Positions 28,585 through 52,219 of a stretch of DNA of 52,430 nucleotides are shown here, piece by piece. Made by a program: the position numbers and the translations under genes. Source of the DNA: a virus (lineage: Duplodnaviria; Caudoviricetes); IMG/VR virus record IMGVR_UViG_3300034065_000062, positions 1-52,430 of that record. One strand, given 5' to 3'. Position 1 is the stretch's first letter. Every line of letters starts with the position of its first letter. Below the pieces are notes generated by a model. It worked only from the letters and a program-made list of their open reading frames with translations, was not told the DNA's origin and ran no database searches.

Positions 28585-29901
28585 TTATCTTTTTCTTTTA
28601 AACAAAGTTTTAAATACGGGATAACATTCCTCAGCTGTTTCTACTATAGATAATGTAACCTTACCAGAGCGAACATTTTCACGAACATAATCATAAGCTT
28701 CCCAAAGATTTGTATCTCTGGAACCACCTCTGGCTTGACCAACCTCAATATAACTAAACAGGTTTACCTTGTCTAATAATGGATGATCACCAGTTAATCT
28801 GTCAACCACCAAATCATTATCATCATCCCAGTTATCGCCATCAGAAGCATGGCAAACATAGATGTTGGTTTCATTTGGATCATACCGTTCTTTAATGATA
28901 TTGTCTACCATTTCTAGAGCTGGAGATACCGAAGTACCACCATTCATACGAGTACTAAAGAAGTCTTCTTCAGACATTTCAAAAGCTTCAGTTGTATGGG
29001 CAATAAAGACCAATTCCGTTGTTGCATATCGACGTTGAATGAATGCATATAATAATGCAAACCATCGACGAGCAATGATCTTTTTCTCTTCATCCATGGA
29101 ACCAGAAATATCCATTAAGAAGAACAGAACACTGTCAACTGTCTTAAGTGGTTTGGCTTCTTTTTTACGATAGCGAAGATCTGATTTATCAAAGCCCGCA
29201 ATGAATGCAATCTTTTTATCCAGCTCTGCTAATCGGACATAAATTTCTGCAACCCGAACTTTTAATTGTTCAGCGGCAATATATTCAGTTCCTGGAATCC
29301 GTTCTTCAAGCATACGAAGTTCTAATTCAAGGGCTTCCTTTTCAGTCTTATAAGGACCTTGTAAAGCTTTACGACGACCAAGAGATTGTTTATAAGTACG
29401 GATAACACTTAACTGTGCTGGGTTTCCTGTTGTGGAGAAACCTGCAGGTTGGAATGTATTATCAGCTTTATCAGTGAATTTTTCGTTGACAAGATTTGGT
29501 AGTTCACAGTCTTCAAAGAATAAGTCTAAGAATTCACCACGAGCAATATTAACGATGAATTCATCTTCGCCATTTTCACCGGGTCCACCTTTACCACCGG
29601 CGCCACCTTCATCATCTTCTGGAATACGAACCTTATCACCACGTTGGTATTCTGTATTACCAATGATGACGGCTGTTTGTTGACCATCATTTGCATAGGC
29701 AAACCATGGTTCTTCTAATGCTGTACCTGCAACTTTAACAGGTGAGTCACTTTTTGCTTTTGTACCACTGACACCACCTTGACCAATATTTTGTGGCACG
29801 GATGATTTGATGAATGATTTAATACGTTTAATCAACTTCTGTCTATTTTCAGAAGACTTACCTTGTCCAGCTTTCCTGCGATCGATTAGGATAAAAGCCA
29901 T
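28585..29901 (-). CDS. YeaH/YhbH (DUF444) vWA-domain protein
   Basis: IDRR N-terminus, FFEDCELPNL, DLRY, MDISGSM MIDAS motif, ASDGDNW. Confidence 0.92.
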   Translation of the reverse strand: MAFILIDRRKAGQGKSSENRQKLIKRIKSFIKSSVPQNIGQGGVSGTKAKSDSPVKVAGTALEEPWFAYANDGQQTAVIIGNTEYQRGDKVRIPEDDEGGAGGKGGPGENGEDEFIVNIARGEFLDLFFEDCELPNLVNEKFTDKADNTFQPAGFSTTGNPAQLSVIRTYKQSLGRRKALQGPYKTEKEALELELRMLEERIPGTEYIAAEQLKVRVAEIYVRLAELDKKIAFIAGFDKSDLRYRKKEAKPLKTVDSVLFFLMDISGSMDEEKKIIARRWFALLYAFIQRRYATTELVFIAHTTEAFEMSEEDFFSTRMNGGTSVSPALEMVDNIIKERYDPNETNIYVCHASDGDNWDDDNDLVVDRLTGDHPLLDKVNLFSYIEVGQARGGSRDTNLWEAYDYVRENVRSGKVTLSIVETAEECYPVFKTLFKRKR

Positions 29902-29903
29902 TG

Positions 29904-30143
29904 TTATTCCTTTTTAATACTACTATTCAACTGGTCACGAAGTGCACAGGCATAAAGCATCTTCTGTTCATTATCCCAGAAGTCACCAGTAATTTCCATA
30001 GCAACATCATGATTGAAATCATCAGATTGAAGCACAAGTCTATCCAATCCTTCTTCACTACGTGGTGGCCATACATCAATCTGCCACGGGCCTTTATCAG
30101 CCACATTATAGTAGTCTTCGGGTTTAGGTATTTGTGCTGTCAT
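29904..30143 (-). CDS. Hypothetical protein (79 aa)
   Basis: AAGGA RBS; lies between prkA and the yeaH-like gene. Confidence 0.65.
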   Translation of the reverse strand: MTAQIPKPEDYYNVADKGPWQIDVWPPRSEEGLDRLVLQSDDFNHDVAMEITGDFWDNEQKMLYACALRDQLNSSIKKE

Positions 30144-30179
30144 TATATCCTTAGTTAAAGTTTAATATTTTGCGAAACA

Positions 30180-30207
30180 GCTATATTCACCGAACAGTGA
30201 ATATAGC
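30180..30207. terminator. Hairpin after prkA
   Basis: GCTATATTCAC-CGAACA-GTGAATATAGC perfect 11-bp stem. Confidence 0.55.
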
Positions 30208-30221
30208 CATTTTAGCGAATA

Positions 30222-32183
30222 TTAGTTTTTACGGTTGTTTGCCCACCATGCAACAATCAAACGTACTTGTGCTGCTGTGTAACCTTTGGTAATCATACGA
30301 GACATAAAATCATCATGTTTCTTCTGTTCATCAGATGAACCTTTTGGATTGAAAGAAACAATCGGCATAATGTCTTGAGTTGCTGAAAACATTTTCTTTT
30401 CAATAACGATCTTGATTTTTTCATATTGATTCCATGCTGGTGCACGACCTTCATTTTTTGCACGATGACGTAATACATAGTGAACGATGTCATTACGGAA
30501 ATCTTTTGCATTAACAATTGAAGCACTCTTTTCAAGTTCTTCCAAGCGTGAATTCAAGTTGTTACGATCCAACAAGACATGGGTTTCTGGATCACGTACA
30601 GTTGTTTCATCGATCCATGCTTCAGCAAACAAGCAGTAACGTTCAAACATTGTCTGACCGAAATCTGAGTAAGATTCCAAGTATGCAATACGAAGTTCTT
30701 TGTCAATAAATTCAAAGAAGCGTGGTTGTACCCATGATTTGATGTAATCAAGATAACGTTCATGATCTTCTTGTGGAAGATGTTCACGTTTTAATGCTTC
30801 TTCAAGAACATACATCAAGTCAATTGGATTGGCCTGAACTTCTTCTGGGCGCAAGTTAAAAGTTTGTGAAAGGATTTTGAATGCAAAACGAGTTGATAAT
30901 CCATTCATACCTTCATCAACACCTGCAGCTTGTTTGTATTCTTCATACGGTTTAGCCATTGGCATTGTATCTTTTACATTTTCACCATTATAGACTTTCA
31001 TCTTGGCGAACAATGTGCTATTTTCCGGTTCACGAAGACGTGTAAGAACCATAAATTCAGCAAGGGCTTTCAATGTTTCTGGTGCACAAGGTGCATTATG
31101 AAGACTTGATACGGTCAACATTTTTTCATAAATCATACGTTCTTCATCAGTACGTAAGCAATATGGAACGTTAACAATATAGACCCGATCCAAGAAAGCT
31201 TCATTGGATTTATCATTACGGAATTTAAACCATTCTGCTTCATTTGAGTGAGCGCAGATAATACCAGTATAAGGCATAGCTGGAATATTTTCAGTACCAT
31301 TGTAGTTGTGTTCTTGTGTTGCCATCAACAATGGATTCAATGTTTTGATATTGCTTTTAAACATTTCAGCAAATTCCATGAAACATTGGCTTGTACGATT
31401 CAAACCACCTGAATAGGAATAGCTGTATGGATGATTCTGTGAATAAGTTTCCAATTTACGGATATCAGTTTTACCAATAAGGACTGAAACGTCTTGGTTA
31501 TTTTCATCACCCGGTTCAACCTTCATGATACCAATTTGTGAATCTTTGTTTGGATACATTTTAACAACAGTAAATTTGGTCCAGTCACCATCAAACTCTT
31601 TCAGTTTTTCTTGAGCCCAACCAGAAGATACAGTGTTCAAATAACGAACATCGATACCAAAGGTTTTTTGAAGTTCTTCACCATGTTCATGTTTGTTGAA
31701 CAAGCCAAGTGGGCTTTCAAACATAGGTGAAATTTGTAGCTCTGGATTCTTTTCTGAAGAATCTTTAAGAACGTAGATTGGATGCTGTTGCATCAATTCT
31801 TTGAGACGTTCAACTAATGAAGATTTTGAAGAACCGACTGGTCCTTTAAGATACAAAATCTGTTTGGATTCTTCCAAGCCTTGTGCGAAATGGCGGAAGT
31901 ATGCAACTAAACGTTCAATGGTTTCTTCAATACCATAGAAGTCTTTGAATGCTGCATATTGACGAATTTTTTTATTTGAGAAGATGCGGGAGAGATGTGC
32001 ATCTTGAGAAGTATCAATAACAGTTGGTTCACCAATTGCTGCTAACATACGCTCGGCGGCATTTGCATATGCCATTTTATCAGTTTTGCACAAGTTGAGA
32101 TATTCTTCAATTGTCATTTCTGTATTGGTAGCAAATTTCTTTGCAAAGGTAGATTTAAAACTATTACTAAGTTTCGTATTCAT
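30222..32183 (-). CDS. prkA: PrkA/YeaG AAA+ serine protein kinase
   Basis: AAERML.AIGEP, KQILYLKGPVGSSKSS Walker A, EPGDENNQD, EF.EMFK, AHSNE, GLSTRFAFK. Confidence 0.93.
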   Translation of the reverse strand: MNTKLSNSFKSTFAKKFATNTEMTIEEYLNLCKTDKMAYANAAERMLAAIGEPTVIDTSQDAHLSRIFSNKKIRQYAAFKDFYGIEETIERLVAYFRHFAQGLEESKQILYLKGPVGSSKSSLVERLKELMQQHPIYVLKDSSEKNPELQISPMFESPLGLFNKHEHGEELQKTFGIDVRYLNTVSSGWAQEKLKEFDGDWTKFTVVKMYPNKDSQIGIMKVEPGDENNQDVSVLIGKTDIRKLETYSQNHPYSYSYSGGLNRTSQCFMEFAEMFKSNIKTLNPLLMATQEHNYNGTENIPAMPYTGIICAHSNEAEWFKFRNDKSNEAFLDRVYIVNVPYCLRTDEERMIYEKMLTVSSLHNAPCAPETLKALAEFMVLTRLREPENSTLFAKMKVYNGENVKDTMPMAKPYEEYKQAAGVDEGMNGLSTRFAFKILSQTFNLRPEEVQANPIDLMYVLEEALKREHLPQEDHERYLDYIKSWVQPRFFEFIDKELRIAYLESYSDFGQTMFERYCLFAEAWIDETTVRDPETHVLLDRNNLNSRLEELEKSASIVNAKDFRNDIVHYVLRHRAKNEGRAPAWNQYEKIKIVIEKKMFSATQDIMPIVSFNPKGSSDEQKKHDDFMSRMITKGYTAAQVRLIVAWWANNRKN

Positions 32184-32254
32184 TTTTACTCCTGGTTATT
32201 TAAGATGTGAATCTACAACACTGCTCTAACACAATTCTATTTATACATTAAAAA

Positions 32255-32665
32255 TTAAGTTTTTTCGCCTTCTGAAGAATAATCCAAATGCTTCAATTCA
32301 CATTCATGGATAATTCCGCCGGGTTCAATTTCTAATGTACGATAATAAATTTTAGATCCTGTTATTTTGGCACTGGCAAGGATACGAACAGTTCCTTCAG
32401 CCCAAATTGTTTTGCTTGTTACTTGGCCGGCAATGATGATATCACCAGTGCAGATTTCTGTTGATTGTATAATCCCACTTTTGGTAAGAATAACACAATC
32501 AAATTTTGCCCCCTTAGTTGCGGTATCGGTAATACCTGCTAAAGTTGTACCACTTATATTACCTTCAATCTTGATAGTTCCAGTGAAATTTACTTCACCA
32601 GAAACTGAAGTTCCTTCAGCAATCAGATTCGTGAAAGAATCTGTATTAAGTTTCTTATTAAACAT
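32255..32665 (-). CDS. Bactofilin (polymer-forming cytoskeletal beta-helix protein)
   Basis: LIAEGTSVSGEVNFTGTIKIEG...IIIAGQV...ILASAKITG..YRTLEIEPGG pattern of the CcmA/bactofilin family. Confidence 0.8.
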   Translation of the reverse strand: MFNKKLNTDSFTNLIAEGTSVSGEVNFTGTIKIEGNISGTTLAGITDTATKGAKFDCVILTKSGIIQSTEICTGDIIIAGQVTSKTIWAEGTVRILASAKITGSKIYYRTLEIEPGGIIHECELKHLDYSSEGEKT

Positions 32666-32686
32666 AATTAACCTCGTGTGTGAATA

Positions 32687-33280
32687 TTAGATGCCGTAGC
32701 GACCAGGCAATAATTTATTAAGTGGTCCAAGCTTTGAAGTATCCCCTATATGGAATTCAACAAATTGATATTCAATAGCATCCTGTTTATCAGTTGCTTC
32801 TTGAGTTAACCATTCTGACCGATTTGAACAAACATAAATGCTTTCTTTATATCTGAATAAAGCCTTTGTTAATTCGATTCCGGTAACAGGAAATGATATA
32901 TCACCACGTGGAATAGTATTAACAATGGTAACATATAAAGTATCTGGACCTAAATCCATACCTTCTTTATAGATACCTTGACCACCAATTAAAATGACAT
33001 CCTCATTAGTGTCAATTGCTTCAGGTAATGAAGCACAACAATGTAGGCCATCAATTAATGAGTATGGTGCAGGTTTACTTGTGATAAGAATGTTTTTTCT
33101 TTTTGGGAGAGGTTTACCAATACTGTTATAAGTATTAGTTCCCATAACAACTGTTTTACCAGATGTCATGTTTCTGAAATGACGCATATCTTCTTTGATA
33201 TCCCATGGAATGTTATTAGTTGCTGAATTACCAATAATACCATTGAGACCTACTGCGACAATCATACTAAATTTTGACAT
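32687..33280 (-). CDS. Dihydrofolate reductase
   Basis: MIVA..NGIIG...IPW.IKEDMRHF...VVMG..TY.SIGKPLPKR.N...IGG.GIY. Confidence 0.92.
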   Translation of the reverse strand: MSKFSMIVAVGLNGIIGNSATNNIPWDIKEDMRHFRNMTSGKTVVMGTNTYNSIGKPLPKRKNILITSKPAPYSLIDGLHCCASLPEAIDTNEDVILIGGQGIYKEGMDLGPDTLYVTIVNTIPRGDISFPVTGIELTKALFRYKESIYVCSNRSEWLTQEATDKQDAIEYQFVEFHIGDTSKLGPLNKLLPGRYGI

Positions 33281-33839
33281 ATTTTTGAATTTCCTTTATA
33301 GCTTTATAGAAGGCTATTTTGTTGGCTCTTGCATCACATATAGAAATGTGTTGCGTTTCTGTTGGTTTCTCTTCAAAGTAATCACTAAAATAGAGATGAA
33401 ATAACTCACGGACTGTTTTACACAGCTCAGCATAATTATTATCAGATACACCTATTATATCACAACCACGAGGTAAAGTGACATAAACATTTTCACCACC
33501 ACGAATAAATTTTGGATGTGGTTCAGTAAGTAATTCAATCAGCAGATCATAATCTTTCTGATAGTCCCACATGATTAATATCTGATCACATTCTAGGCCA
33601 TCCAACCATTCCCAAAGACGAGCAGATAGTTCAGAACGTTTATGTCCATACAGAGTGAAGTTTAGTAATGGGTAGATATTTTCTTGAACCCACTCATTAG
33701 CATATTCTCGTTGGAAGTCAGTATTTTCACCATAGAATTCCTTGCCATCATCCGAGATACAGCCAATAGAAATTAGATCACAGTCTTTGAAATCTGTGAA
33801 TTCTGTGTCAATCCAGACACGAAGTATATTCTTTTTCAT
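33267..33839 (-). CDS. DEDD-family 3'-5' exo(ribo)nuclease
   Basis: WIDTEFT..LISIG...FYGE...D.DL...H.SICDAR; likely start MKKNIL at 33839. Confidence 0.75.
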   Translation of the reverse strand: MKKNILRVWIDTEFTDFKDCDLISIGCISDDGKEFYGENTDFQREYANEWVQENIYPLLNFTLYGHKRSELSARLWEWLDGLECDQILIMWDYQKDYDLLIELLTEPHPKFIRGGENVYVTLPRGCDIIGVSDNNYAELCKTVRELFHLYFSDYFEEKPTETQHISICDARANKIAFYKAIKEIQKYVKI

Positions 33840-34015
33840 TAGTGCATCATGGTGAAAGATTTGGGCATACCACATTTAGTACAAGTACAAAAAGCAGTTC
33901 TACCAACATGTCTTTTAGTACCATCCTCATCAGTCTCTTCTAATCTGATAGTATCATCAGTTCTCCACTGATGATCATATATACCAAATAGTGATCTAAA
34001 AAATCGACTAAACAT
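33839..34015 (-). CDS. Small hypothetical protein (58 aa) with CxCxxC
   Basis: Read by hand: MFSRFFRSLFGIYDHQW...CTCTKCG...*; stop overlaps the next start. Confidence 0.6.
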   Translation of the reverse strand: MFSRFFRSLFGIYDHQWRTDDTIRLEETDEDGTKRHVGRTAFCTCTKCGMPKSFTMMH

Positions 34016-34017
34016 GA

Positions 34018-34206
34018 TTAACCCTTTGGTTTAATGACAGTACAAGTATCGAGTTCGGTATCAATTTCGACATCGATATATTCACCATATGTCAACCATT
34101 CAGAAGCGGCATCATACATTTCTTCTCTTTCTTCTTCAGAAAGATTAGCTCTTCCTAATGCATCATGAAGTGAATCAGGACCTTTAAAAGTTAGTTTAAG
34201 TTTCAT
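34018..34206 (-). CDS. Hypothetical protein (62 aa)
   Basis: ORF track; operon context. Confidence 0.65.
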   Translation of the reverse strand: MKLKLTFKGPDSLHDALGRANLSEEEREEMYDAASEWLTYGEYIDVEIDTELDTCTVIKPKG

Positions 34207-34207
34207 A

Positions 34208-34525
34208 TTAATTTTGCTTTACGTAAGTTGTACCATCAATGGTGATGGTATTTTGGACAGTGCTATTCATCATAGTCATTGATGTTTCGGAAGATGGACA
34301 GCGGATGATATAAACTGATTTATAATTAACTGGAGTTATGATAGACATTTTACACCCCTTTAAATCGGGAGTTTTTGCTATCTCCGCATTATAATCATTC
34401 ATATACTGTTGAGCTTTTGGAATGGTTTCTGCTTGATACTTATCAGGTTTCGCACTACACCCTGTCAACAAATAGGGAATAAAAAGACTTACTAATATCA
34501 GAATATTAAATAAATGTTTTTTCAT
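34208..34525 (-). CDS. Putative lipoprotein
   Basis: MKKHLF + hydrophobic stretch + lipobox LTGC; likely start at 34525. Confidence 0.7.
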   Translation of the reverse strand: MKKHLFNILILVSLFIPYLLTGCSAKPDKYQAETIPKAQQYMNDYNAEIAKTPDLKGCKMSIITPVNYKSVYIIRCPSSETSMTMMNSTVQNTITIDGTTYVKQN

Positions 34526-34535
34526 TTTGGACTTT

Positions 34536-34787
34536 TTAATTAGGTGGTTTATGTAGATGATCAATACCCATTTGAATATCGAAATCACTGTAGCCTTGCA
34601 TCTCTTTAAGAGTTTGTTCTTCTTCAGCTACAGCTTTATCTAATTCGGCTTGACGGATACGTCTTATCTCTAATGCGATTTCATAATCCGTATATCCATC
34701 TAATTCCATGGACATACGAATATATGATTCTTCTGTGGCCTGATCGGGTTTTAATGCCGACCAGACTTTAGAAAGCCAATTCCACAT
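34536..34787 (-). CDS. Hypothetical protein (83 aa)
   Basis: Start overlaps the Ro60 stop; repeated GY(T/S)D.(E/D)I motif. Confidence 0.65.
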   Translation of the reverse strand: MWNWLSKVWSALKPDQATEESYIRMSMELDGYTDYEIALEIRRIRQAELDKAVAEEEQTLKEMQGYSDFDIQMGIDHLHKPPN

Positions 34788-36397
34788 TAGAAGGACTGAA
34801 TCAATTGTGGTGCTGCTGAATCAAAACCAGCGATATCCAACATACCAGGATCTTTTGGATCGGCAATTGTAAACTTGGTTACTGATGTACCACAAACAAT
34901 CAATTTAGCATCTTTGACATGCTTTTGACGGTAACGTGATAATGCTTCAACAGGTTGCATCTTACCAGCATATGTTTCATTGTCGGTAATAACAACAAAT
35001 TTACTTACATTATCCATACCATTGTCAAGTGCATGACGCATTGGCAATGAGCAATCAGTTGAACCCCAATTGAATTTTTGCATAACAGCCAATACAGCAT
35101 CTAAGCGCATTGATGGAGAGATTTTTAATTCACTCATTCTGTTATTGAAACCACCAATCCAATGGTTAGGTTCACGCTTAGCAACAGCCAAAGCCATAAC
35201 TGCAGCAACTTCAGCTGAAGAAAGGTTTGGAGCACTTGAAACACTTGAGCTCCACATAGAACCAGAACAGTCAACACCAATCAAATGACCAAGGCCAGTT
35301 GATTCAATGAAATTGAATGATTCATAGAAAACATCATTCAATGCATCAAGGATTTGTTGAGATGGAGTCCAAGTTAATGAACCCTTATCACCATGACCGG
35401 TTTTGTATTGGTTGAATGCATTCAAAATAGTGATTGGGTGTACTCGACCACTCTTGATTGCTTCTACATCAGTTAACTTACCAACAATAAGTTGAAGATC
35501 ATTTGACATTGGCTTGATTACACCAATATTAGTCAACTGACCAAGCTTACGGATAAGTGCTGTCATACCCATTGTGTTAACAAGAGCCGACATAACTGCT
35601 GGGTTACGATGCAATTCAGTTGGAATCATTTCCCATGTGATATCAGGATTTGATTCAATCAATTTGATTGCAGTCTTAGCATCAACACCACGCTTCAATG
35701 TTTCAAAGTCAATAAGCAATTGTGGAACTGCTGTATTAGCTTCAATAGCTTCGGCACCCTTTACAGAGTAACGGAACAAAGCAGATTGAACATCATTAGT
35801 TGGTTTAACATGAGCTAAACGCAAGACGTCACGATGTGCCCAACCATTTCGTGATTGGTACTTTAACAATTGAACTGCCAACTTGTCTTCTTTACGCTTT
35901 GTGTACCAGGAAGCAATACCACGTTTTGCAGCGGCATTCCACTTACCAAGTTCATCAATTGCGGCAACAAATTGGAACAAATGAGTACCGATACGGCAAA
36001 CTTTATGCAAGGATGCGTATGCTGCGGCAACAGTTGCTTCATCACCATTGATTGCACATAGTGCAAGAGCAAAGACGGCTGAATCATTTTTAGGTGCACG
36101 GCCAGCTTGTGAGATTTCCACAATACGATTTACTGTTTTGATACCATCAAGTTTAATACAAGCCAATACATTCTTAGCAGCATCTTTGGTAAGTTTTTCA
36201 ACTGATGCATAGTAGAATGGTGATTCACTACCCAAGATTAGGAAACGATCCAAGTAGGACCATGCATCTAATTTGAATACGAATCCACCCGCATGGTTTT
36301 TAACCATTTCGGCTTCACGACCTGAAAGAGGTTGTGTTTGTGGTGTTACTGTTTTTGTTGGCTTTGTTGATACGGTGTCTGAATAGCTAAATGACAT
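34787..36397 (-). CDS. rsr: Ro60/Rsr (TROVE + vWA) RNA-binding protein
   Basis: NHAGGFVF..D....LDRFLILGS, RIGTHLFQF, KYQSRNGW.HRD.LRL.H, VHP, DCSGSM MIDAS, TDCSLPM, ITDNET, IADP.D.GMLDI.GFD. Confidence 0.95.
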   Translation of the reverse strand: MSFSYSDTVSTKPTKTVTPQTQPLSGREAEMVKNHAGGFVFKLDAWSYLDRFLILGSESPFYYASVEKLTKDAAKNVLACIKLDGIKTVNRIVEISQAGRAPKNDSAVFALALCAINGDEATVAAAYASLHKVCRIGTHLFQFVAAIDELGKWNAAAKRGIASWYTKRKEDKLAVQLLKYQSRNGWAHRDVLRLAHVKPTNDVQSALFRYSVKGAEAIEANTAVPQLLIDFETLKRGVDAKTAIKLIESNPDITWEMIPTELHRNPAVMSALVNTMGMTALIRKLGQLTNIGVIKPMSNDLQLIVGKLTDVEAIKSGRVHPITILNAFNQYKTGHGDKGSLTWTPSQQILDALNDVFYESFNFIESTGLGHLIGVDCSGSMWSSSVSSAPNLSSAEVAAVMALAVAKREPNHWIGGFNNRMSELKISPSMRLDAVLAVMQKFNWGSTDCSLPMRHALDNGMDNVSKFVVITDNETYAGKMQPVEALSRYRQKHVKDAKLIVCGTSVTKFTIADPKDPGMLDIAGFDSAAPQLIQSF

Positions 36398-36441
36398 AGT
36401 GTGATACTCCTTTAAGAAACGGCTGGGAAATCCAGCAAAAT

Positions 36442-36789
36442 AATAACATGACTTTCTAAGTCTCCATAACGAAAAGTTGAAATCGGAGATTTCGATATAC
36501 CCCGGTAAGACGCCAATATTGTCCGGCTTACTTACTCATTGAATATACCTACACTAATTTTTCTGACTAGTAACATACTTGATATTCCATCAAGACTATT
36601 CTCCTTAATGCCCGTATTGAGAAGTGACGGTTAATACTATCCCAGTAAAGGGCTGCTGTGGCATATTAATACCCTATTTTCTAAGTGGCTTGTCTTTCAA
36701 CTTGCATACTGTTTTAATAGGTGCATATTTTTCACGTTTGAGATAACCAATGTTCGGTCGGTTAAGAAGACTTAAAAAATCATGTTATT
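36442..36789 (-). ncRNA. Large (~350 nt) Y-RNA-like structured RNA
   Basis: Ends pair over >20 bp with G-U pairs on the minus strand; AACCG-N12-UUAUC motif at 36740-36763; many internal hairpins; directly upstream of Ro60. Confidence 0.7.
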
Positions 36790-36811
36790 TAAAAAAGTTT
36801 GTGTTACATGA

Positions 36812-36928
36812 TATAGATTTAGAAATGAAACAAAGAAGTGTTAATCGTCGTTTGGTTTATTCTGTCGGGCTTTCACTCAACCGATTAAAAGTGGATAATC
36901 AATTAACGTTCGGTTTCTTAAATCTATA
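36812..36928 (-). ncRNA. Y-RNA-like RNA (~117 nt)
   Basis: Terminal stem UAUAGAUUUA/UAAAUCUAUA; GAAAC-C-GAA paired to UUC-UUU-GUUUC (bulged helix); upper stem GUUAAUUG/CGAUUAAC followed by AUUAUCC. Confidence 0.75.
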
Positions 36929-36945
36929 AATTACATATTATTGTA

Positions 36946-36975
36946 ATTATATACTATTTATAGAAATTTGTATAT
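36946..36975 (-). promoter_or_regulatory. Overlapping late (TATAAATA, 36955-36962) and sigma70-like (TATAAT) promoter for the Y-RNA/Ro60 unit
   Basis: Minus strand reads ATATACAAATTTCTATAAATAGTATATAAT. Confidence 0.55.
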
Positions 36976-36987
36976 ATTTAAAATAAA

Positions 36988-37578
36988 TTATACTGGTTTT
37001 GGTTGTGGTGGACATTGATACAAAATTCCAGGAAGCAACATAATACAATCTTCTGGTATTCTTCGCGGATTATTTTTGATATCCATTGTACTAAAGAATG
37101 TAAATTTATAAGGATTACCGTCATGACCTTTGACTGAAATCCATTCAAAAATTGGGGCATCCATAAACATGGCAATTGGTGGATTAGAAGTTTCTATAAC
37201 TTCCAGGATAACTTCTCCACTTTCTGATACTGGTGAACCATTTTGTTCTTGTCGATCAAGTTCATCATAGTATTCACATGCAGCCACAGTATCATCAATA
37301 AATCCTTGGGGATTATTGGGATAATGAATAGCTCGCAAATATTGCAAAGCCATATACTTAATAAATTGTGATATAAGAAGTCCGGCAAAAAATGAACCAA
37401 GGAATGAATACCAGTTAATACCAAAAAAGATGATAGCAATAATAGGTGGAACAATAGCACCAAACCATTTACCAATTATGATCCAGCGTTCATGTGATTT
37501 TAATAACATTTCCATTTTAGGGGTAAGTTTACTCATAGCAGTTCTCCTTTGGAAAGTATATAATTCAATTATACTCAC
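36988..37578 (-). CDS. Membrane protein (2 TM helices)
   Basis: Hydrophobic N-terminal pair; probable start MSKLTP behind an AGGAG RBS. Confidence 0.7.
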   Translation of the reverse strand: MSIIELYTFQRRTAMSKLTPKMEMLLKSHERWIIIGKWFGAIVPPIIAIIFFGINWYSFLGSFFAGLLISQFIKYMALQYLRAIHYPNNPQGFIDDTVAACEYYDELDRQEQNGSPVSESGEVILEVIETSNPPIAMFMDAPIFEWISVKGHDGNPYKFTFFSTMDIKNNPRRIPEDCIMLLPGILYQCPPQPKPV

Positions 37579-37603
37579 CCTATTATTAGAGTGAGTATAA
37601 TCA

Positions 37604-38173
37604 TTAGTGCTTCAAATACTGATGTGCTCTTGATGTTTCTGGAATGAAACTCATTAAGAATTCCATTTGATCAGAAAGAACCTGACGGTTTTGTAACAAC
37701 AAGAATTCTGCACTTGATGGTACATATGGAACATATACCAACTTCATACTACATTCAGATAACAAAGAGTCATTCTTGTGGTTATTACAACGTTCACAAG
37801 CAGATACAACATTCATCCAAGTATCTTTACCACCACGTGATGTCGGAACAATATGATCACGTGTTAATTTGCTGTCCGGAAAGTGCTTAGCACAGTACGC
37901 ACAAATATTGTGGTCACGGCGGAAAAGTTCTTTGTTGCTTAAAGATGGAATAGAAAAACGCTTCTTCCCTTTAGCAGAACCTTTAACGGCAATGATTGAA
38001 GATGTATGGATAATAGATTGCATACCAGTCATGCGGTTTTGACCACCACGAGCTGTGGTATTGCTTTCACCCAATGACCAAGTTACTAATCCTTTAGCAT
38101 GTAAAGTAATAGCATCCTGCCATGAAATCCATTTGATTGGCTGACCTTGAGTATCTAATTGTAATATAAGCAT
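37604..38173 (-). CDS. HNH endonuclease family protein
   Basis: LFRRDHNICAYC...LTRDHIVPTSRGG..TW.NVVSAC..CN..K. Confidence 0.9.
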   Translation of the reverse strand: MLILQLDTQGQPIKWISWQDAITLHAKGLVTWSLGESNTTARGGQNRMTGMQSIIHTSSIIAVKGSAKGKKRFSIPSLSNKELFRRDHNICAYCAKHFPDSKLTRDHIVPTSRGGKDTWMNVVSACERCNNHKNDSLLSECSMKLVYVPYVPSSAEFLLLQNRQVLSDQMEFLMSFIPETSRAHQYLKH

Positions 38174-38174
38174 T

Positions 38175-38303
38175 TTATAACCTGTGTATGATGAGACGTA
38201 AAATTAATAAATCTATAACAAACATATCCCCAAATTCCCCTTCTGCTGGCAGGAATTCAAATCCTAAACTGACTCCCATGATAAATTCTGGCTCGATATA
38301 CAT
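38175..38303 (-). CDS. Small hypothetical protein (42 aa)
   Basis: Read by hand: AAGGA RBS, MYIEPEFIMGVSLGFEFL...IDLLILRLIIHRL*. Confidence 0.55.
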   Translation of the reverse strand: MYIEPEFIMGVSLGFEFLPAEGEFGDMFVIDLLILRLIIHRL

Positions 38304-38383
38304 ATGAATCCTTTATTATAAGTCTAATTAATTATACCACAGAAAATCTATGGTATACCAGATATTTATAATAAACTTTGTAA

Positions 38384-38902
38384 CTATGAGTTACAGTAAA
38401 GTTTCAATGCTTCATATGTAACTTCTGGATTTTTGTACTGATGTAAAATTCCAATACCTTTACCTTTTTGAACCCAATCTGAAATATTATCTTCTCGGTC
38501 ATCAATTAATATGTCACCAGGAGTACAATGTTTCCATTTATCTGCACTATATGGACCCATATTAACGCTAACATCTTTACTTAAATGTTGGGCCATCCAA
38601 TCCCGTTTATCTTGTGCAGCATCTGGCATTGGTGAACGTCTTGGAATTGCAGTAAGAATCTGTACATCTGCTCCATAGGAATTAATCAAATCCCATAAAG
38701 TTTTAGCATAAGGTGTTGGTTTTAATTGAAGATACAAATGTGGAATTGTTTTAAGAAATTCCCACATTGCAGTATCAGCACCTGGACCATCAGCATGATG
38801 GAAAGTTCTACCCATATGAGTTAAAACAAAATCATCAAAGTCTGCAATAACACCATCCATATCACAATAGATGGTATTTACTTTGGGATTAAAATTTCTC
38901 AT
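38384..38902 (-). CDS. HAD-family 5'(3')-deoxyribonucleotidase
   Basis: IYCDMDGVIADF, ILTA, K..W, DILIDDR..NI..W. Confidence 0.88.
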   Translation of the reverse strand: MRNFNPKVNTIYCDMDGVIADFDDFVLTHMGRTFHHADGPGADTAMWEFLKTIPHLYLQLKPTPYAKTLWDLINSYGADVQILTAIPRRSPMPDAAQDKRDWMAQHLSKDVSVNMGPYSADKWKHCTPGDILIDDREDNISDWVQKGKGIGILHQYKNPEVTYEALKLYCNS

Positions 38903-39081
38903 GGTGTTGTACCAAGTACTAATGTATCTGGATTAGCTGCTTGTTTAGCATCACGTTCCGCTTTTAGTTTAGCAATAGTTTGTGTTTGATATTCCTGGTA
39001 TGCTTTGTGTGCGGCTTCATTTCGTGCAATTGCTGTAGCTTTACGTTCTTCGTAAGTACCGCGTTGTTTAGCTTGACCCAT
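38899..39081 (-). CDS. Hypothetical protein (60 aa)
   Basis: AAGGA RBS; MGQAKQRGTYEERKA N-terminus. Confidence 0.7.
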   Translation of the reverse strand: MGQAKQRGTYEERKATAIARNEAAHKAYQEYQTQTIAKLKAERDAKQAANPDTLVLGTTP

Positions 39082-39098
39082 GATTATTTCCTTTTATG

Positions 39099-39548
39099 TT
39101 ATGATTGAATATATGTATATGTTGCTTCAACTATTTTGTGATGTTTTACATCACCTTCCTTTAAAAATTCTTCTTTTGATAACCACATTACCTTACCTGT
39201 TTCAAAGTGAGGTTTATCAAAATCATCCTTGCTTTTAACTTGACCACAAAAAATGATCAATTTATATAAATCTTTGGCACCTTGCATTTCATCATCAGAT
39301 ACAAGATGAATTGTATCATGTATTAGATTAGATATTTTAAATCCAAGTTCTTCTTTAGCTTCCCTTAATGCTGCAGCTTTACTGGTTTCACCTGGATCAA
39401 CATTACCCTTTGCAATTTGTGGTTTGGTTCCACCAAATTTAGGATCAGATGGAACCATAAACATAAACAGTGGTTCATCATTTTCAAAAATATAAGGGAT
39501 AAACCCAGCCTTTTTTTTTGCACGCATTGCTATTTCACTTAATTTCAT
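39099..39548 (-). CDS. NUDIX hydrolase
   Basis: Nudix box KGNVDPGETSKAAALREAKEELG. Confidence 0.88.
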   Translation of the reverse strand: MKLSEIAMRAKKKAGFIPYIFENDEPLFMFMVPSDPKFGGTKPQIAKGNVDPGETSKAAALREAKEELGFKISNLIHDTIHLVSDDEMQGAKDLYKLIIFCGQVKSKDDFDKPHFETGKVMWLSKEEFLKEGDVKHHKIVEATYTYIQS

Positions 39549-39556
39549 TTAAATCC

Positions 39557-40228
39557 TTAATCTGTTAATGACATTTTTGGTACTGATTCCCGATATCGAC
39601 GGATATTAAATTCATTTCTTACCTCAGCACATTTTAATAAATTTTCTGATAATACATATTGATATTTTTGATAAGAAGTATCATCATTTTTAAAATACTT
39701 ATCCATTTCTTCAATAGAATAAAATGTTACCATCGAATGTCCAACTTTTGTATTGTCTGAAGTATCATATAAAGTTATTGTATGTCCTAATTTAAACAAA
39801 TTTTTCCATATATTGTAACCTTCATCACTTAAAGTTTTATCACTCATCATACGAATACTTTTATCAGTATCTTTCAATATGGCACTATATAAATCACTAG
39901 CATATGGGGCCTTACCTTTTAATTTTGGATTTTTACCTGTCATTCTAACAACTAAACATTGATGTTCTTTATGTAATTCAGTGCCAAGTTGAATTTGTCC
40001 ATCTTTTTCATACCAGTATACAATAGCAGAACCAGCACTAATTTTTTTTAAATTATTACCTAAATCTTCTGCTTTAATACCATGTTTTATAAAGTCTTTA
40101 ATATTATATTCTAACATATCAAAGGTTTCAAAAGTTCCTAATCCTTCTGGCATTTCAGAAAGCCATGACTCATTAAACATAGTTCTATCACCTATATGCT
40201 TAAGTGGGTTTATTTCATCTAGTTTCAT
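39557..40228 (-). CDS. Hypothetical protein (223 aa)
   Basis: MKLDEI N-terminus; SD.TLSDEG..IW motif suggests a GNAT-like fold (weak). Confidence 0.7.
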   Translation of the reverse strand: MKLDEINPLKHIGDRTMFNESWLSEMPEGLGTFETFDMLEYNIKDFIKHGIKAEDLGNNLKKISAGSAIVYWYEKDGQIQLGTELHKEHQCLVVRMTGKNPKLKGKAPYASDLYSAILKDTDKSIRMMSDKTLSDEGYNIWKNLFKLGHTITLYDTSDNTKVGHSMVTFYSIEEMDKYFKNDDTSYQKYQYVLSENLLKCAEVRNEFNIRRYRESVPKMSLTD

Positions 40229-41028
40229 TTATTCCTTGATTTTTTCTTTAATATTTTAGTTTTGGCAAATTGCCAAAATATATCACTGGGTGCAAGATAG
40301 TTTCTTATTTTTATTAAGTCATCCCATCTAGTATGGGTATTTGCTGAATCCAAAATAACAACAGTATCTCTTTGATTATTTATATTTAATATAACAACTA
40401 AGCAACCACCTGAAGCATTAATAAAACCTGTTTTTGATAATATAAAATCCCAACCTGGTTTATGTAATAATGGATTGGTTGACTTATAATGACCATAAGA
40501 AGTTTCTTCTGTTGTGGTAATAATATTTAATAATGGTTCAGAAATCATATTAGCAAATAATGCTAAATCCTTTGCTGAAGCATGATTCATCATACTCAAA
40601 CCAGAAGGTTCTTCCAAATAAATGGAATATAAACCACGGTCCATTGCTGCTTGATTTACTTTTTTAATAATAAAATCAGTACCATGTTCCCGAGCTAATG
40701 CATAAATTGCTTGGTTATTGGAAGGTATCAAAGCCAACTCAAGTAGTTGTTGTTCAGTCAGCATTGTATTAGTTTTGATATGAGCTCGCATATTAGCAGA
40801 ATCTTCCTTCTTAACTAATACACTATTACCAGCAAGTAAAACAGGAACTATCTGTTCAGCAACTAACAGTTTAGAAATTGAGGCAATTGGGCGAATAGTA
40901 TCTTCATCATGAGCAAGAATAATTTGACCTGCTTCATCCAAAACAACATAAGATTTGGCAGATATATTTGGAACTTGTGCAGATACTAGTGAACTAACTA
41001 ATAATAATAAAATAGCAAGTTTATTCAA
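40225..41028 (-). CDS. D-Ala-D-Ala peptidase (peptidase S11, PBP7/DacA-like), secreted
   Basis: Signal peptide; SxxK (ASISKL), SxN (PSNN), KTG (SKTGF), EPSGL. Confidence 0.88.
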   Translation of the reverse strand: MNKLAILLLLVSSLVSAQVPNISAKSYVVLDEAGQIILAHDEDTIRPIASISKLLVAEQIVPVLLAGNSVLVKKEDSANMRAHIKTNTMLTEQQLLELALIPSNNQAIYALAREHGTDFIIKKVNQAAMDRGLYSIYLEEPSGLSMMNHASAKDLALFANMISEPLLNIITTTEETSYGHYKSTNPLLHKPGWDFILSKTGFINASGGCLVVILNINNQRDTVVILDSANTHTRWDDLIKIRNYLAPSDIFWQFAKTKILKKKSRNK

Positions 41029-41309
41029 AAAACTGGTTCCTTATAATCTGGTAATACAACAGACTGATGACCAACATGAATAAGTCGAACTTTCCGACCA
41101 CCAACACGATTACGAAGATTTGGATGCCATGCGATTTCAATAGCTTGAATATAATCTTGTTGAGTTACTTCAGTAAGTCGATATATTTGCATACCATTAT
41201 ACATACAAGTTGATGCAATAGCAATATAGGCACCAACTTCTAATTTGGTACCAAGCATATCATAGGTAGGCTTACCCTTCTCAAGGGCTTCTTTAATCTT
41301 AGCATGCAT
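41025..41309 (-). CDS. Hypothetical protein
   Basis: AAGGAG RBS. Confidence 0.7.
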   Translation of the reverse strand: MHAKIKEALEKGKPTYDMLGTKLEVGAYIAIASTCMYNGMQIYRLTEVTQQDYIQAIEIAWHPNLRNRVGGRKVRLIHVGHQSVVLPDYKEPVF

Positions 41310-41364
41310 AAAAACTCCTTAGTCAAGGAATTATTATATCATGTTTGACAAGATTAAGATATGA

Positions 41365-41452
41365 AAATAGGGCATTTTCATTGGGGGTCTTGGTACGTAT
41401 TTATCCAAGATTAACAGTGACTTGCGCCCCCGCCGATGAAAATGCCCTATTT
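41365..41452 (-). ncRNA. Unidentified structured element (17-bp stem capped by a 3-way junction)
   Basis: AAATAGGGCATTTTCAT perfect inverted repeat enclosing GGGG/CCCC, a GGC-GCAA-GUC hairpin and UCUUGG/CCAAGA. Confidence 0.5.
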
Positions 41453-41455
41453 ATT

Positions 41456-41674
41456 TTATACAGTTGTATAGTCTTCAACATGAACACTTGCAACACGTTT
41501 TACCATGTTGTTGTTGATCATGTATTGCAGAACACCACGAACATCTAACCAATTTTTGATAGTCATTTCAGCTGATACAGCTTCAACGATTTTCTTCCAT
41601 GGTGTTGGTTCAGCAGTAATAGTCTTAGTCAAAATTGCAAGAACTTGATGCTGTTTGTTTGCAGAGATAGCCAT
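41456..41674 (-). CDS. Hypothetical protein (72 aa), possibly winged-helix-like
   Basis: AAGGA RBS; preceded by a promoter-like sequence. Confidence 0.7.
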   Translation of the reverse strand: MAISANKQHQVLAILTKTITAEPTPWKKIVEAVSAEMTIKNWLDVRGVLQYMINNNMVKRVASVHVEDYTTV

Positions 41675-41710
41675 GATAATTTCCTTGTGGTTGTTTTCAA
41701 TCGATAAGTA

Positions 41711-41740
41711 ATTATACTTCTATCTGAAAGCAAAGTACAC
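41711..41740 (-). promoter_or_regulatory. Early/sigma70-like promoter GTGTAC-N18-TATAAT
   Basis: Minus strand GTGTACTTTGCTTTCAGATAGAAGTATAAT; a similar GTATAC...TGGTATAAT lies near 47626-47655. Confidence 0.55.
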
Positions 41741-41757
41741 AATTAAATTGTAACGGT

Positions 41758-42429
41758 TTACCACAACAAATCAAAGTTGCCAGAAAGTACTTTACTAACC
41801 TGTGCAGTCTTTCCAGTTATATGATCTGTAACAGTATTATCTTGGAATCTATAAGTACGGACCTTATCCCCACGCATACCTGAACCAACTTGATTCTTTC
41901 TATCTTGAGAAACCAACTGCTGTTCCTTGCTGAAGTGTGTGGAATTTAGTTTTAATAATAAAGCTTGGGTAGCTTCATTAAGTGAATTTTCCCGACTACG
42001 ACATTGTGCAGTTGAGACAATACCGGTTTTGATATGTGTAAGACGGCATGAGTTCTGGTGTTTATTGCGATGTTGACCACCACTACCAGTACCAGAGTAC
42101 CATTCTATTTTAAAGTCTTTTTGATTGAACTCGATCGCTTTTATTTCAGTGGGATCAATAACAGCAACTGTTACAGTTGAAGTATGAACTCTACCTTTGC
42201 GTTCGGTTGGGGGAGTGCGTTGGATTCTTTGCCCACCTTTTTCATTATCCAATCCAGATAAATCCTTGCCTTCTACTTCTATGGATATGACACCCTTAGT
42301 AGTTTCGACAAGGTGGTGCTTTCAGCCAACTCGTTGGAAGTGTTTAATGTAGGAGTTAGCTAAATCTTTTGAGAAGAGTTTAGCATCATCACCGCCTTCA
42401 GCAAATCTGATTTCTAGTATTTTTTTCAT
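41758..42429 (-). CDS. RF1-type peptide chain release factor lacking domain 1, with in-frame TGA at codon 36 (42322-42324)
   Basis: AAGGA RBS, MKKILEIRFAEGGDDAKLF...QRVG*KHHLV...; QRTPPTERKGRVHTS (PxT motif), GSGGQHRNK, KVRTYRF. Confidence 0.85.
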
Positions 42430-47444: not shown

Positions 47445-47572
47445 TGGTGGTGACGGAAGGGATCGAACCTCCACTAGCCTGTTATGAGTAGGATAATCAA
47501 TAAGCGACCGGTTGAGTTAACAACAAAAAATGCAATCGATGTTTTACTGTGCTGCCATTACACTACATCACC
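47445..47572 (-). ncRNA. tRNA(CAT) carrying a 54-nt Y-RNA-like insertion in the anticodon stem
   Basis: Acceptor GGUGAUG/CGUCACC-A-CCA, D and T arms and loop CUCAUAA all intact; insert carries AACCG-N12-UUAUCC. Confidence 0.75.
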
Positions 47573-52056: not shown

Positions 52057-52131
52057 TGGTGCCCAGACACTAGAATCGAACTGTGATCTATTCCTTACAA
52101 GAGAATCGTTCTACCATTGAACTATAAGGGC
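52057..52131 (-). tRNA. tRNA-Thr(TGT)
   Basis: Loop CUUGUAA, CCA. Confidence 0.8.
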
Positions 52132-52143
52132 ATAATTTAAAAC

Positions 52144-52219
52144 TGGCTGACCAGGCAGGGCTCGAACCTGCGACAAACGGATTAACAGTCCGCTACTCTA
52201 CCAACTGAGTTACAAGTCA
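52144..52219 (-). tRNA. tRNA-Asn(GTT)
   Basis: Canonical; loop CUGUUAA, G73, CCA. Confidence 0.9.

Follow-up and report, generated by a model that had tools for sequence, protein, structure and literature searches.

Ro60 proteins and their Y RNAs are conserved from bacteria to humans. In this work, a viral locus was analysed in which a gene for Ro60 (Rsr) is preceded by a structured RNA of unusual size, referred to below as the giant RNA. The locus lies in a stretch of 52,430 nucleotides (nt) from a virus of the class Caudoviricetes (IMG/VR record IMGVR_UViG_3300034065_000062), which is called the window throughout and is a fragment corresponding to ~15% of the estimated complete genome. The genes of the window run on the minus strand, and a big tRNA array is found at 45-52 kb. 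All coordinates refer to this 52-kb window; the giant RNA is on its minus strand, with RNA position p at window position 36790-p.

The Ro60 locus and the fold of the giant RNA

The open reading frame (ORF) that follows the giant RNA is, judged by its domain matches (Table 1), a true Ro60/Rsr gene. The giant RNA sits in the 590-nt gap upstream of it, on the same strand and 44 nt before the Ro60 start codon. An original prediction, made from the letters of the window, had described a Y-like RNA here and had referred to a Ro60 leader; the structured RNA does share its strand with Ro60, and the TROVE and vWA_Ro60 matches confirm that the gene downstream is genuine. The prediction had also described the region as free of ORFs, in agreement with our finding that no ORF reaches 60 amino acids (aa); on the plus strand, the element is overlapped by two mechanical ORFs of 40 and 59 aa.

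Near relatives of the locus were sought at both the nucleotide and the protein level. A blastn search with 34700-37100 for near relatives in named phages returned no match. With the Ro60 protein, 354 phage records were matched, mostly actinophages and all at less than 60% identity, the identity to named phages being at most ~40%. Metagenomes contained many Ro60 relatives at 60-97% identity, and contigs of 290-360 kb were among their carriers. Sizes of 336-368 kb in four related viral records with a completeness of 98-100% assign the window to a jumbo-phage clade. A single-protein scan of viral contigs with Ro60 gave nothing, while an alignment-based scan retrieved loci; 80 viral loci collected through Ro60 served as the comparison set for the giant RNA.

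The minus strand of 36442-36789 is predicted to fold at -95.7 kcal/mol, in comparison with -69.7 ± 5.1 kcal/mol for 100 shuffled sequences (z -5.07; none of the 100 as good), and the z value for the plus strand is -2.00. Its terminal helix consists of 24 unbroken pairs (36766-36789 with 36442-36465), a U-U mismatch and four further pairs, giving 28 bp. The giant RNA is composed of two modules: a "handle", formed by the terminal helix P1, its junction strands, a second helix P2 and unpaired UUAUC and YNGAA stretches, and a variable multi-hairpin "cargo". Atop P1, the first C of a CCG motif pairs with the G of UUUUCG on the opposite strand, the middle C is predicted to be unpaired and the G is placed opposite C or U.

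When P1 and P2 are enforced on the RNA of the window (the constrained fold), six hairpins result in the cargo. The hairpins that the original prediction had listed (UUCUC/GAGAA, CUUGAU/AUCAAG, ACUAGU/AUUAGU, GUAAG/CUUAC and an arm with a UCGAA-containing loop) are all present, most of them in both the free and the constrained folds. The last of these, described there as the final arm, competes with P2, which is the helix supported by comparison. A closing helix P3 for the cargo was sought and none was resolved. Pairing of UUAUC with internal GAUAG elements was rejected, as the UUAAC and UUACC variants have, by eye, no compensating partner.

Conservation and covariation of the handle

In the viral loci, the longest long-range helix upstream of Ro60 often spans 268-395 nt and comprises 11-25 bp, with a sequence that differs from locus to locus. 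The core of the RNA has a constant order. Its 5' half reads P1 strand, CCG, 1-4 nt, P2 strand (8 nt, usually ending in UUGG) and UUAUC, after which the cargo begins; the 3' half reads YNGAA, ~3 nt, P2 strand (usually starting with CCGA), 3-5 nt, UUUYG and P1 strand. This core is present in 38 of the 41 viral loci that have a Ro60 of at least 49% identity and at least 500 nt of upstream sequence; 34 were found by script and four with a variant P2 (L018, L019, L025 and L040) by eye, and the core was not found in L033, L034 and L036. A metagenome scan recovered it also in L087, L092 and L096/97, and the span from CCG to the 3' G ranges from 199 to 339 nt across the family members. Among the loci with Ro60 at 41-47% identity, 34 were usable and gave no convincing core. 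Weak candidates in L047, L050 and L071, with 6-8 of 12 P1 pairs at 471-1718 nt from Ro60, were judged to be chance. A search by nhmmer with the whole intergenic region produced only six weak matches, and sequence alone therefore misses the family.

Covariation was evaluated in 27 non-redundant sequences, from which the duplicates L004, L013, L029, L035, L039, L043 and L044 had been excluded; L002, a member by eye, was left out of the counts because the script had taken an upstream 5' motif. In the register given by the anchor motifs, cognate P1 strands pair at 13.0 of 15 positions, in comparison with 7.1 ± 2.0 in 702 non-cognate combinations, and every one of these 15 positions shows four to six pair types. 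The MAFFT alignment of whole RNAs kept seven gap-free columns after the 3' G, hence eight P1 pairs are counted there. For these eight and eight pairs of P2, 87.0% of the cells are paired versus 63.3% after shuffling, and the covariation score is 0.658 versus 0.199, with none of 500 shuffles as high. Displacing the partner by 1-3 columns lowers the paired cells to 29-49%. Both sides change in 13 of the 16 pairs, and P1 (helix 1) has 90.7% of its cells paired. Compensation in P2 is seen as UUGG:CCGA, AUGA:UCGU, UUGA:UCGA, UUGG:CCAA, AUCGG:CCGAA and UUGC:GCGA, often with one bulged nucleotide past the fifth pair.

Near-invariant letters are found around the helices, namely UUA and the C of UUAUC, the GAA of YNGAA (26/27) and the U and G of UUUYG. 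The pair between the first C of CCG and the G of UUUYG is present in 27 of 27 sequences, and the G of CCG faces U or C; we infer that the middle C is unpaired, an arrangement with which G-U or G-C pairing fits. The structure of the giant RNA is conserved far beyond chance. The original prediction had staked its claim on conserved structure and on covariation with homologues, and covarying helices in non-redundant relatives are what the comparison found.

Two cargo hairpins recur, each at a fixed place: one has a tip of the GUUGAAAGA type (GUU-GAAA-GAC) and was seen in 11 of 30 members, the other precedes (G/A)UGUAG(G/A) and was seen in 23 of 30. Other parts vary between members in length and content. 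For the 13 members most like the window, RNAalifold gives 24 pairs, 11 of them with compensatory changes, and these include two interior helices. In some relatives, 7-nt loops of the form NYCGAAN on 4-5-bp stems were noted by eye in the alignment.

The vertebrate Ro60 site has been described as a helix in which one C bulges out and the facing strand is bulged as well (PMC4726728); bacterial Y RNAs retain this C (PMC4030889). In all Y RNAs the stem formed by the 5' and 3' ends is reported to hold the Ro60 site, and in bacteria only its 5' strand is conserved (bioRxiv 10.1101/312249). By analogy, the handle, with its helix, unpaired C and longer opposite strand, resembles this published site, and we propose it as the putative docking site for the phage Ro60. 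The cargo would hold an effector, for example a host exoribonuclease. Particles of Ro60, Y RNA and PNPase are known and provide the model for such an effector. On balance, we consider it probable that an uncultured jumbo-phage clade possesses a previously undescribed family of Y-RNA-like molecules associated with Ro60, of which the giant RNA is the largest; its handle would dock Ro60 and its cargo would hold an effector.

Table 1. Coordinates of the Ro60 gene, the giant RNA and its parts, other handle-bearing elements, RNA-library contigs and neighbouring genes.
Feature	Position in window	Strand	Description and support
Ro60/Rsr gene	34787-36397	-	536 aa; PF25045 vWA_Ro60 7.5e-53; PF05731 TROVE 2.4e-32; phrog_850 1.3e-70
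Giant RNA, whole helix-delimited element	36442-36789	-	348 nt; fold z -5.07; terminal helix is the longest long-range helix
P1, 5' strand	36761-36789	-	RNA positions 1-29; fold; P1 covaries in the family
P1, 3' strand	36442-36470	-	RNA positions 320-348; fold; P1 covaries in the family
CCG atop P1	36759-36761	-	C16 and G18 invariant; C17 in 26/27
UUUUCG, 3' junction strand	36470-36475	-	family consensus UUUYG; T305 and G307 invariant
P2, 5' strand	36747-36755	-	GAA-C-AUUGG, C bulged; compensatory variants in relatives
P2, 3' strand	36479-36486	-	CCGAUUUC; comparison and constrained fold
UUAUC adjoining P2	36742-36746	-	unpaired; T31, T32, A33 and C35 invariant in 27 sequences
UCGAAAU, 3' side of P2	36489-36495	-	family YNGAA; GAA in 26/27
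Cargo domain	36496-36741	-	~six hairpins, ~245 nt; constrained fold -89.9 kcal/mol
Long cargo hairpin	36669-36726	-	tipped by GUU-GAAA-GAC
Cargo hairpin CUUGAUG/UAUCAAG	36578-36594	-	
Cargo hairpin ACUAGU/AUUAGU	36548-36571	-	followed by GUAGG
324-nt form	36457-36780	-	candidate circular or end-joined mature RNA; X4 contig only
X4 contig	36457-36640, then 36611-36780		354 nt; 324-nt sequence closed on itself, 30-nt overlap
X5 contig	36505-36751		adapter as loose end
X6 contig	36506-36756		
X7 contig	36502-36755		
Small handle RNA	36812-36928	-	~117 nt; own P1 and P2; CCG 36911-36913; UUAUC 36894-36898
tRNA(CAU) with handle	47445-47572	-	circularly permuted handle in anticodon stem; P1 closed by 6-nt loop
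Leader hairpin	36420-36440	-	UUUUG, 4-bp stem with 5-nt loop, CCG; directly upstream of the Ro60 Shine-Dalgarno
Promoter-like site	36946-36974	-	best sigma-70-like match on the strand: TATACA, 17 nt, TATAAT; 10/12 matches
HNH endonuclease gene	37604-38173	-	kept upstream in 24/31 member loci, 50-62% identity
196-aa ORF	36988-37578		kept in 8/31 member loci, weakly conserved
DHFR			kept in 12/31 member loci
RNase H-like gene	33267-33875		phrog_2259 "RNase H" phage family; no Pfam match; kept in 5/31 member loci

Other handle-bearing RNAs and the Ro60 leader

The giant RNA is not the sole carrier of the handle. On the minus strand of the window, the 5' motif of the handle occurs in three copies: at 36761 in the giant RNA, at 36913 in a small RNA and at 47511 in a tRNA(CAU). 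Matches to this motif number 3, 6, 7, 6 and 6 in the sequences G000-G004, whereas a reversed control gives 0, 0, 1, 1 and 0, and in the four complete relatives nearly all copies are on one strand. The small RNA is placed between the promoter-like site and the giant RNA and has homologues in 10 of the 27 non-redundant loci. Chimeras with CAU and GUA anticodons, like the tRNA(CAU) of the window, occur in the complete relative L166.

The extra copies of L166-L169 (G001-G004) sit in tRNA arrays, which contain handle RNAs of ~150 nt with a T-arm as cargo (5-bp stem, loop UUCGAUU). These follow the YrlA design yet give no match to RF02553. At 3310-3374 of L169, the cargo of the handle is a whole tRNA-like fold with a tRNA score of 31.4 bits. 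This clade thus attaches one handle to many cargos, and the giant RNA is the largest of the resulting molecules; besides it, the phages have grafted the handle onto the small RNA, onto tRNA-like RNAs and onto real tRNAs. A scan of viral contigs with the handle pattern yielded at least 115 loci, and among the matches listed the full handle was present only in L196, the others being chance.

This distribution bears on a different view, in which the handle would be read by a protein other than Ro60 (a tRNA-processing or repair enzyme, an RNA-ligase enzyme or the HNH protein), the giant RNA would belong to a tRNA-centred kit for RNA repair or anti-defence, and only synteny would place it beside Ro60. 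Each complete genome has 6-7 handle copies, of which four to five are in tRNA arrays and some of these inside real tRNAs, and Rnl1/Rnl2-type ligases are encoded in 4/4 complete relatives. In the literature on jumbo phages, RNA repair is connected with tRNAs, RNA ligases and TROVE proteins (PMC7824862). The HNH gene persists upstream in 24 of 31 member loci, an unusual stability for a gene of the free-standing HNH type. However, two handle RNAs are located directly upstream of Ro60 on its strand, and a half-handle described below is present at the ribosome-binding site of Ro60 in 22 of 32 member loci and in 1 of 34 non-member loci. In addition, the handle has the shape published for the Ro60 site (PMC4726728), and YrlA RNAs too combine a Ro60 stem with a tRNA-like domain (PMC4201824). 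Taking both sides together, we regard a reader other than Ro60 as unlikely.

As for the neighbouring genes, the original prediction had suggested that the giant RNA is a scaffold or decoy for nucleases or host defence proteins, a role that found no support, and had named two candidate partners. The HNH gene at 37604 is real, and what connects it with the RNA is synteny, not a demonstrated partnership. The gene at 33267, taken there for a DEDD exonuclease, matches the phage family phrog_2259 ("RNase H") and no Pfam family and is kept in few member loci (5/31).

In the leader hairpin of Ro60, both junction strands of the handle are present and a loop closes P1; the hairpin resembles a closed, permuted half-handle. 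A strict half-handle is present within 120 nt upstream of Ro60 at the frequencies given above, and several of the ten member loci that do not have it carry, by eye, a CUUG variant. In L015, L016 and L022 the half-handle stays at the Ro60 start, with the giant RNA 160-531 nt off. Such a position at the start of Ro60 ties the handle to this protein and not to another one. The half-handle is likely an autoregulatory operator, and we propose that Ro60 controls its own translation through this closed element at the ribosome-binding site.

The promoter-like site is found ~18 nt upstream of the small RNA, which suggests one transcript over both RNAs and Ro60. The giant RNA could accordingly be seen as a cis-acting leader of the Ro60 messenger RNA (mRNA), that is, a structured 5' untranslated region, an attenuator or a stability element, and not as a free-standing RNA. 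Its end 44 nt before the start codon, the location of the best sigma-70-like promoter (36974-36946, 10/12) upstream of both RNAs and the weakness of the sole terminator-like hairpin between the giant RNA and Ro60 are in line with this possibility. Yet the RNA is 160-786 nt away from Ro60 in L014, L015, L016, L022 and L024, and RNAs distant from Ro60 bear this handle as well. Moreover, within P1 one RNA-library contig is closed on itself, and processing from precursors upstream of rsr is also known for bacterial Y RNAs (PMC4201824). A purely cis-acting role is, in our opinion, quite improbable, and we continue with the reading of a free-standing, Y-like RNA, which we propose is cut from a longer transcript.

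In a more distant Ro60 clade (41-47% identity), L046, L051, L052, L054, L059, L060 and L063 contain GAGCCGAA at 27-73 nt upstream of Ro60. There, GAGCCGAA replaces the handle and may represent a different Y-like RNA or operator.

A candidate circular form and the relation to known Y RNAs

The giant RNA is present in RNA libraries. Ten rows of peat RNA libraries contain part of the window stretch, and four peat metatranscriptome runs from four studies (X4-X7) gave one contig each on 35500-37900, all inside the giant RNA, although contigs cannot prove transcription, ends or abundance. In the X4 contig, 36780 is joined to 36457 with 0 shared letters at the joint, so that RNA position 333 is followed by position 10. 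Both positions belong to P1, which their joining would cap with a loop of six bases. From this one contig, the likely mature ends are 36780 and 36457 (324 nt), slightly inside 36442-36789. Should the joint have arisen in the test tube, it would still define both termini of a discrete 324-nt species. We treat the 324-nt circle as a lead whose chances are roughly even. The other three contigs stop at similar places (36502-36506 and 36751-36756), which was taken as at most a weak hint; one of them has an adapter as its loose end. The missing contig cover over Ro60 and the upstream genes in X4-X7 is evidence of nothing and was not used.

According to the mechanism that we propose, the ends of the giant RNA would lie opposite each other in P1 and may be sealed as a 324-nt circle, plausibly by the Rnl1/Rnl2-type ligases of the complete relatives. 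Ligases of the Rnl1 type (PF09511) and of PF09414 were each found in 4/4 of these genomes; RtcB was rejected as the sealing enzyme, being absent from all four and from the window. The occurrence of ligases in jumbo phages fits the published accounts, in which tRNAs, RNA ligases and TROVE proteins are tied to RNA repair (PMC7824862). In having ends that lie in a helix and are joined as a circle, the 324-nt form would be comparable to circularly permuted pre-tRNAs and to archaeal circular small RNAs that an RNA ligase seals (bioRxiv 10.1101/312249; PMC9014305), and an ATP-dependent RNA ligase is available in the relatives. Unlike those RNAs, the present case is one contig with a presumed enzyme, and no splicing endonuclease is known in the system.

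The exact joint of the circle-like contig would also be expected if the giant RNA were a self-splicing or mobile RNA element, intron-like or ribozyme-bearing, with the circle as its excision product. Nonetheless, Rfam gave no intron or ribozyme match at E up to 10, no gene is interrupted, and the RNA keeps a fixed position beside Ro60 with a variable cargo in 38 loci, which makes such an origin very improbable. The discussion below returns to the Y-RNA-like reading.

Characterised Y RNAs measure 80-130 nt (PMC4201824), and the unusual size that the original prediction had pointed out is confirmed, the giant RNA being approximately three times as long. The Rfam searches gave no match of any kind in 36300-37050 (E up to 10), none of Y type in 29500-42000 (E up to 5) and none to the metazoan Y_RNA family (RF00019) in the window (E up to 10). 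The YrlA model (RF02553; threshold 69 bits) matched, over the whole window, only in tRNA genes and at no more than 22.8 bits. As a positive control, a mycobacteriophage Ro60 locus gave a YrlA match of 28.8 bits (E 0.004) just upstream of Ro60. Nineteen relatives compared with Rfam at the gathering threshold returned one tRNA and nothing else. The full-length YrlA match of 22.8 bits, at 52074-52192 on the minus strand, comprises the T-arm of one tRNA, a spacer and the D-arm of the next; it is a tRNA-tRNA junction and not a YrlA gene.

The hallmarks of YrlA are T and D arms and the motif GNCGAAN0-1G near the 5' end (PMC4201824). In the giant RNA there is no tRNA or YrlA match, T and D arms are missing, and the window reads GACCGAAC near the 5' end, a stretch that misfits GNCGAAN0-1G and is not conserved in the relatives. 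Like YrlA and YrlB with Rsr (RF02553, PMC4201824), the phage RNAs precede Ro60 at a short distance and share its strand, a tandem of two RNAs being common, and have a 5'/3' stem with a conserved irregular site and a second module on its distal side (PMC4201824); sister RNAs in these phages moreover carry T-arm or tRNA-like cargo. Unlike YrlA, the giant RNA has the motifs CCG...UUGGUUAUC and YNGAA...UUUYG in place of GNCGAAN0-1G and is ~three times longer.

With vertebrate Y RNAs (RF00019) it shares a terminal stem whose 5' strand contains an unpaired C and whose other strand has extra nucleotides (PMC4726728, PMC4030889), as well as a variable domain for other partners, here ~245 nt of hairpins in comparison with a loop of ~30-50 nt. 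Unlike vertebrate Y RNAs, it has no oligo-U tail and belongs to a bacterial virus. The name Y-like given by the original prediction therefore holds for the end-to-end stem, the irregular handle and the variable body, but not as a match to any Rfam Y family.

A precedent is offered by the Thermus phage phiLo, whose Ro60 binds two upstream-encoded RNAs (Yrl1 and Yrl2) and assembles with host PNPase, a capture of the host enzyme being proposed (PMC12135203). In both cases a phage Ro60 is preceded by two RNAs. However, the phiLo RNAs are small and picked by a CGAA motif in an internal bulge, and the available part of that account describes no family-wide handle, giant cargo or circular form (PMC12135203). 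No description of the present RNA family or of a circular Y RNA was found in the literature, the supplements of PMC4201824 (22 YrlA phages) lying outside the search.

Several observations speak against a Ro60-docking, Y-like family. The size, 348 nt from helix to helix and 324 nt in the contig, is far outside 80-130 nt, neither the Y_RNA nor the YrlA model of Rfam matches the giant RNA, and the GNCGAAN0-1G motif of YrlA is not conserved near its 5' end. Most handle copies per genome are in tRNA arrays far from Ro60, and a tRNA-related protein could be what the handle serves. Ro60 was the route by which all loci were collected, and the sample is therefore biased; linkage to Ro60 could also reflect shared ancestry within one phage clade. 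The leader half-handle has no P2 partner in the window. With respect to the circle, the joint is seen in one contig of one run and is absent from the three other RNA contigs, and there is no RNA ligase gene in the 52-kb window, which is ~15% of the genome.

A more ambitious version can be formulated, in which an expanded Ro60 system uses one docking handle on the giant RNA, the small RNA, tRNA mimics and working tRNAs. The giant RNA would be sealed by a ligase into a 324-nt circle, the first circular Y RNA, and would act as an exonuclease-proof scaffold that captures a host RNA-decay or defence enzyme, while Ro60 would throttle its own translation through the half-handle. We consider this full version possible but doubtful.

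In the best reading, the giant RNA extends the Y RNA kind by a new variant of very large size. It would belong to a family of RNAs tagged with the handle and may be circular. To our knowledge, the recruit of a Y RNA's variable module is known in very few cases. A covarying handle with interchangeable cargos, ranging from 117 nt to ~350 nt and including real tRNAs, would constitute a natural mutational map of the Ro60 docking site; the set of cargos could be used to fish for partners, and the family provides a testable case of autoregulation. If the 324-nt circle is true, it would represent a new route to Y RNA stability and a DNA-encoded circular RNA in a phage, and it would link Ro60 to the RNA ligases of jumbo phages, with a bearing on how these viruses counter RNA-targeting host defences.

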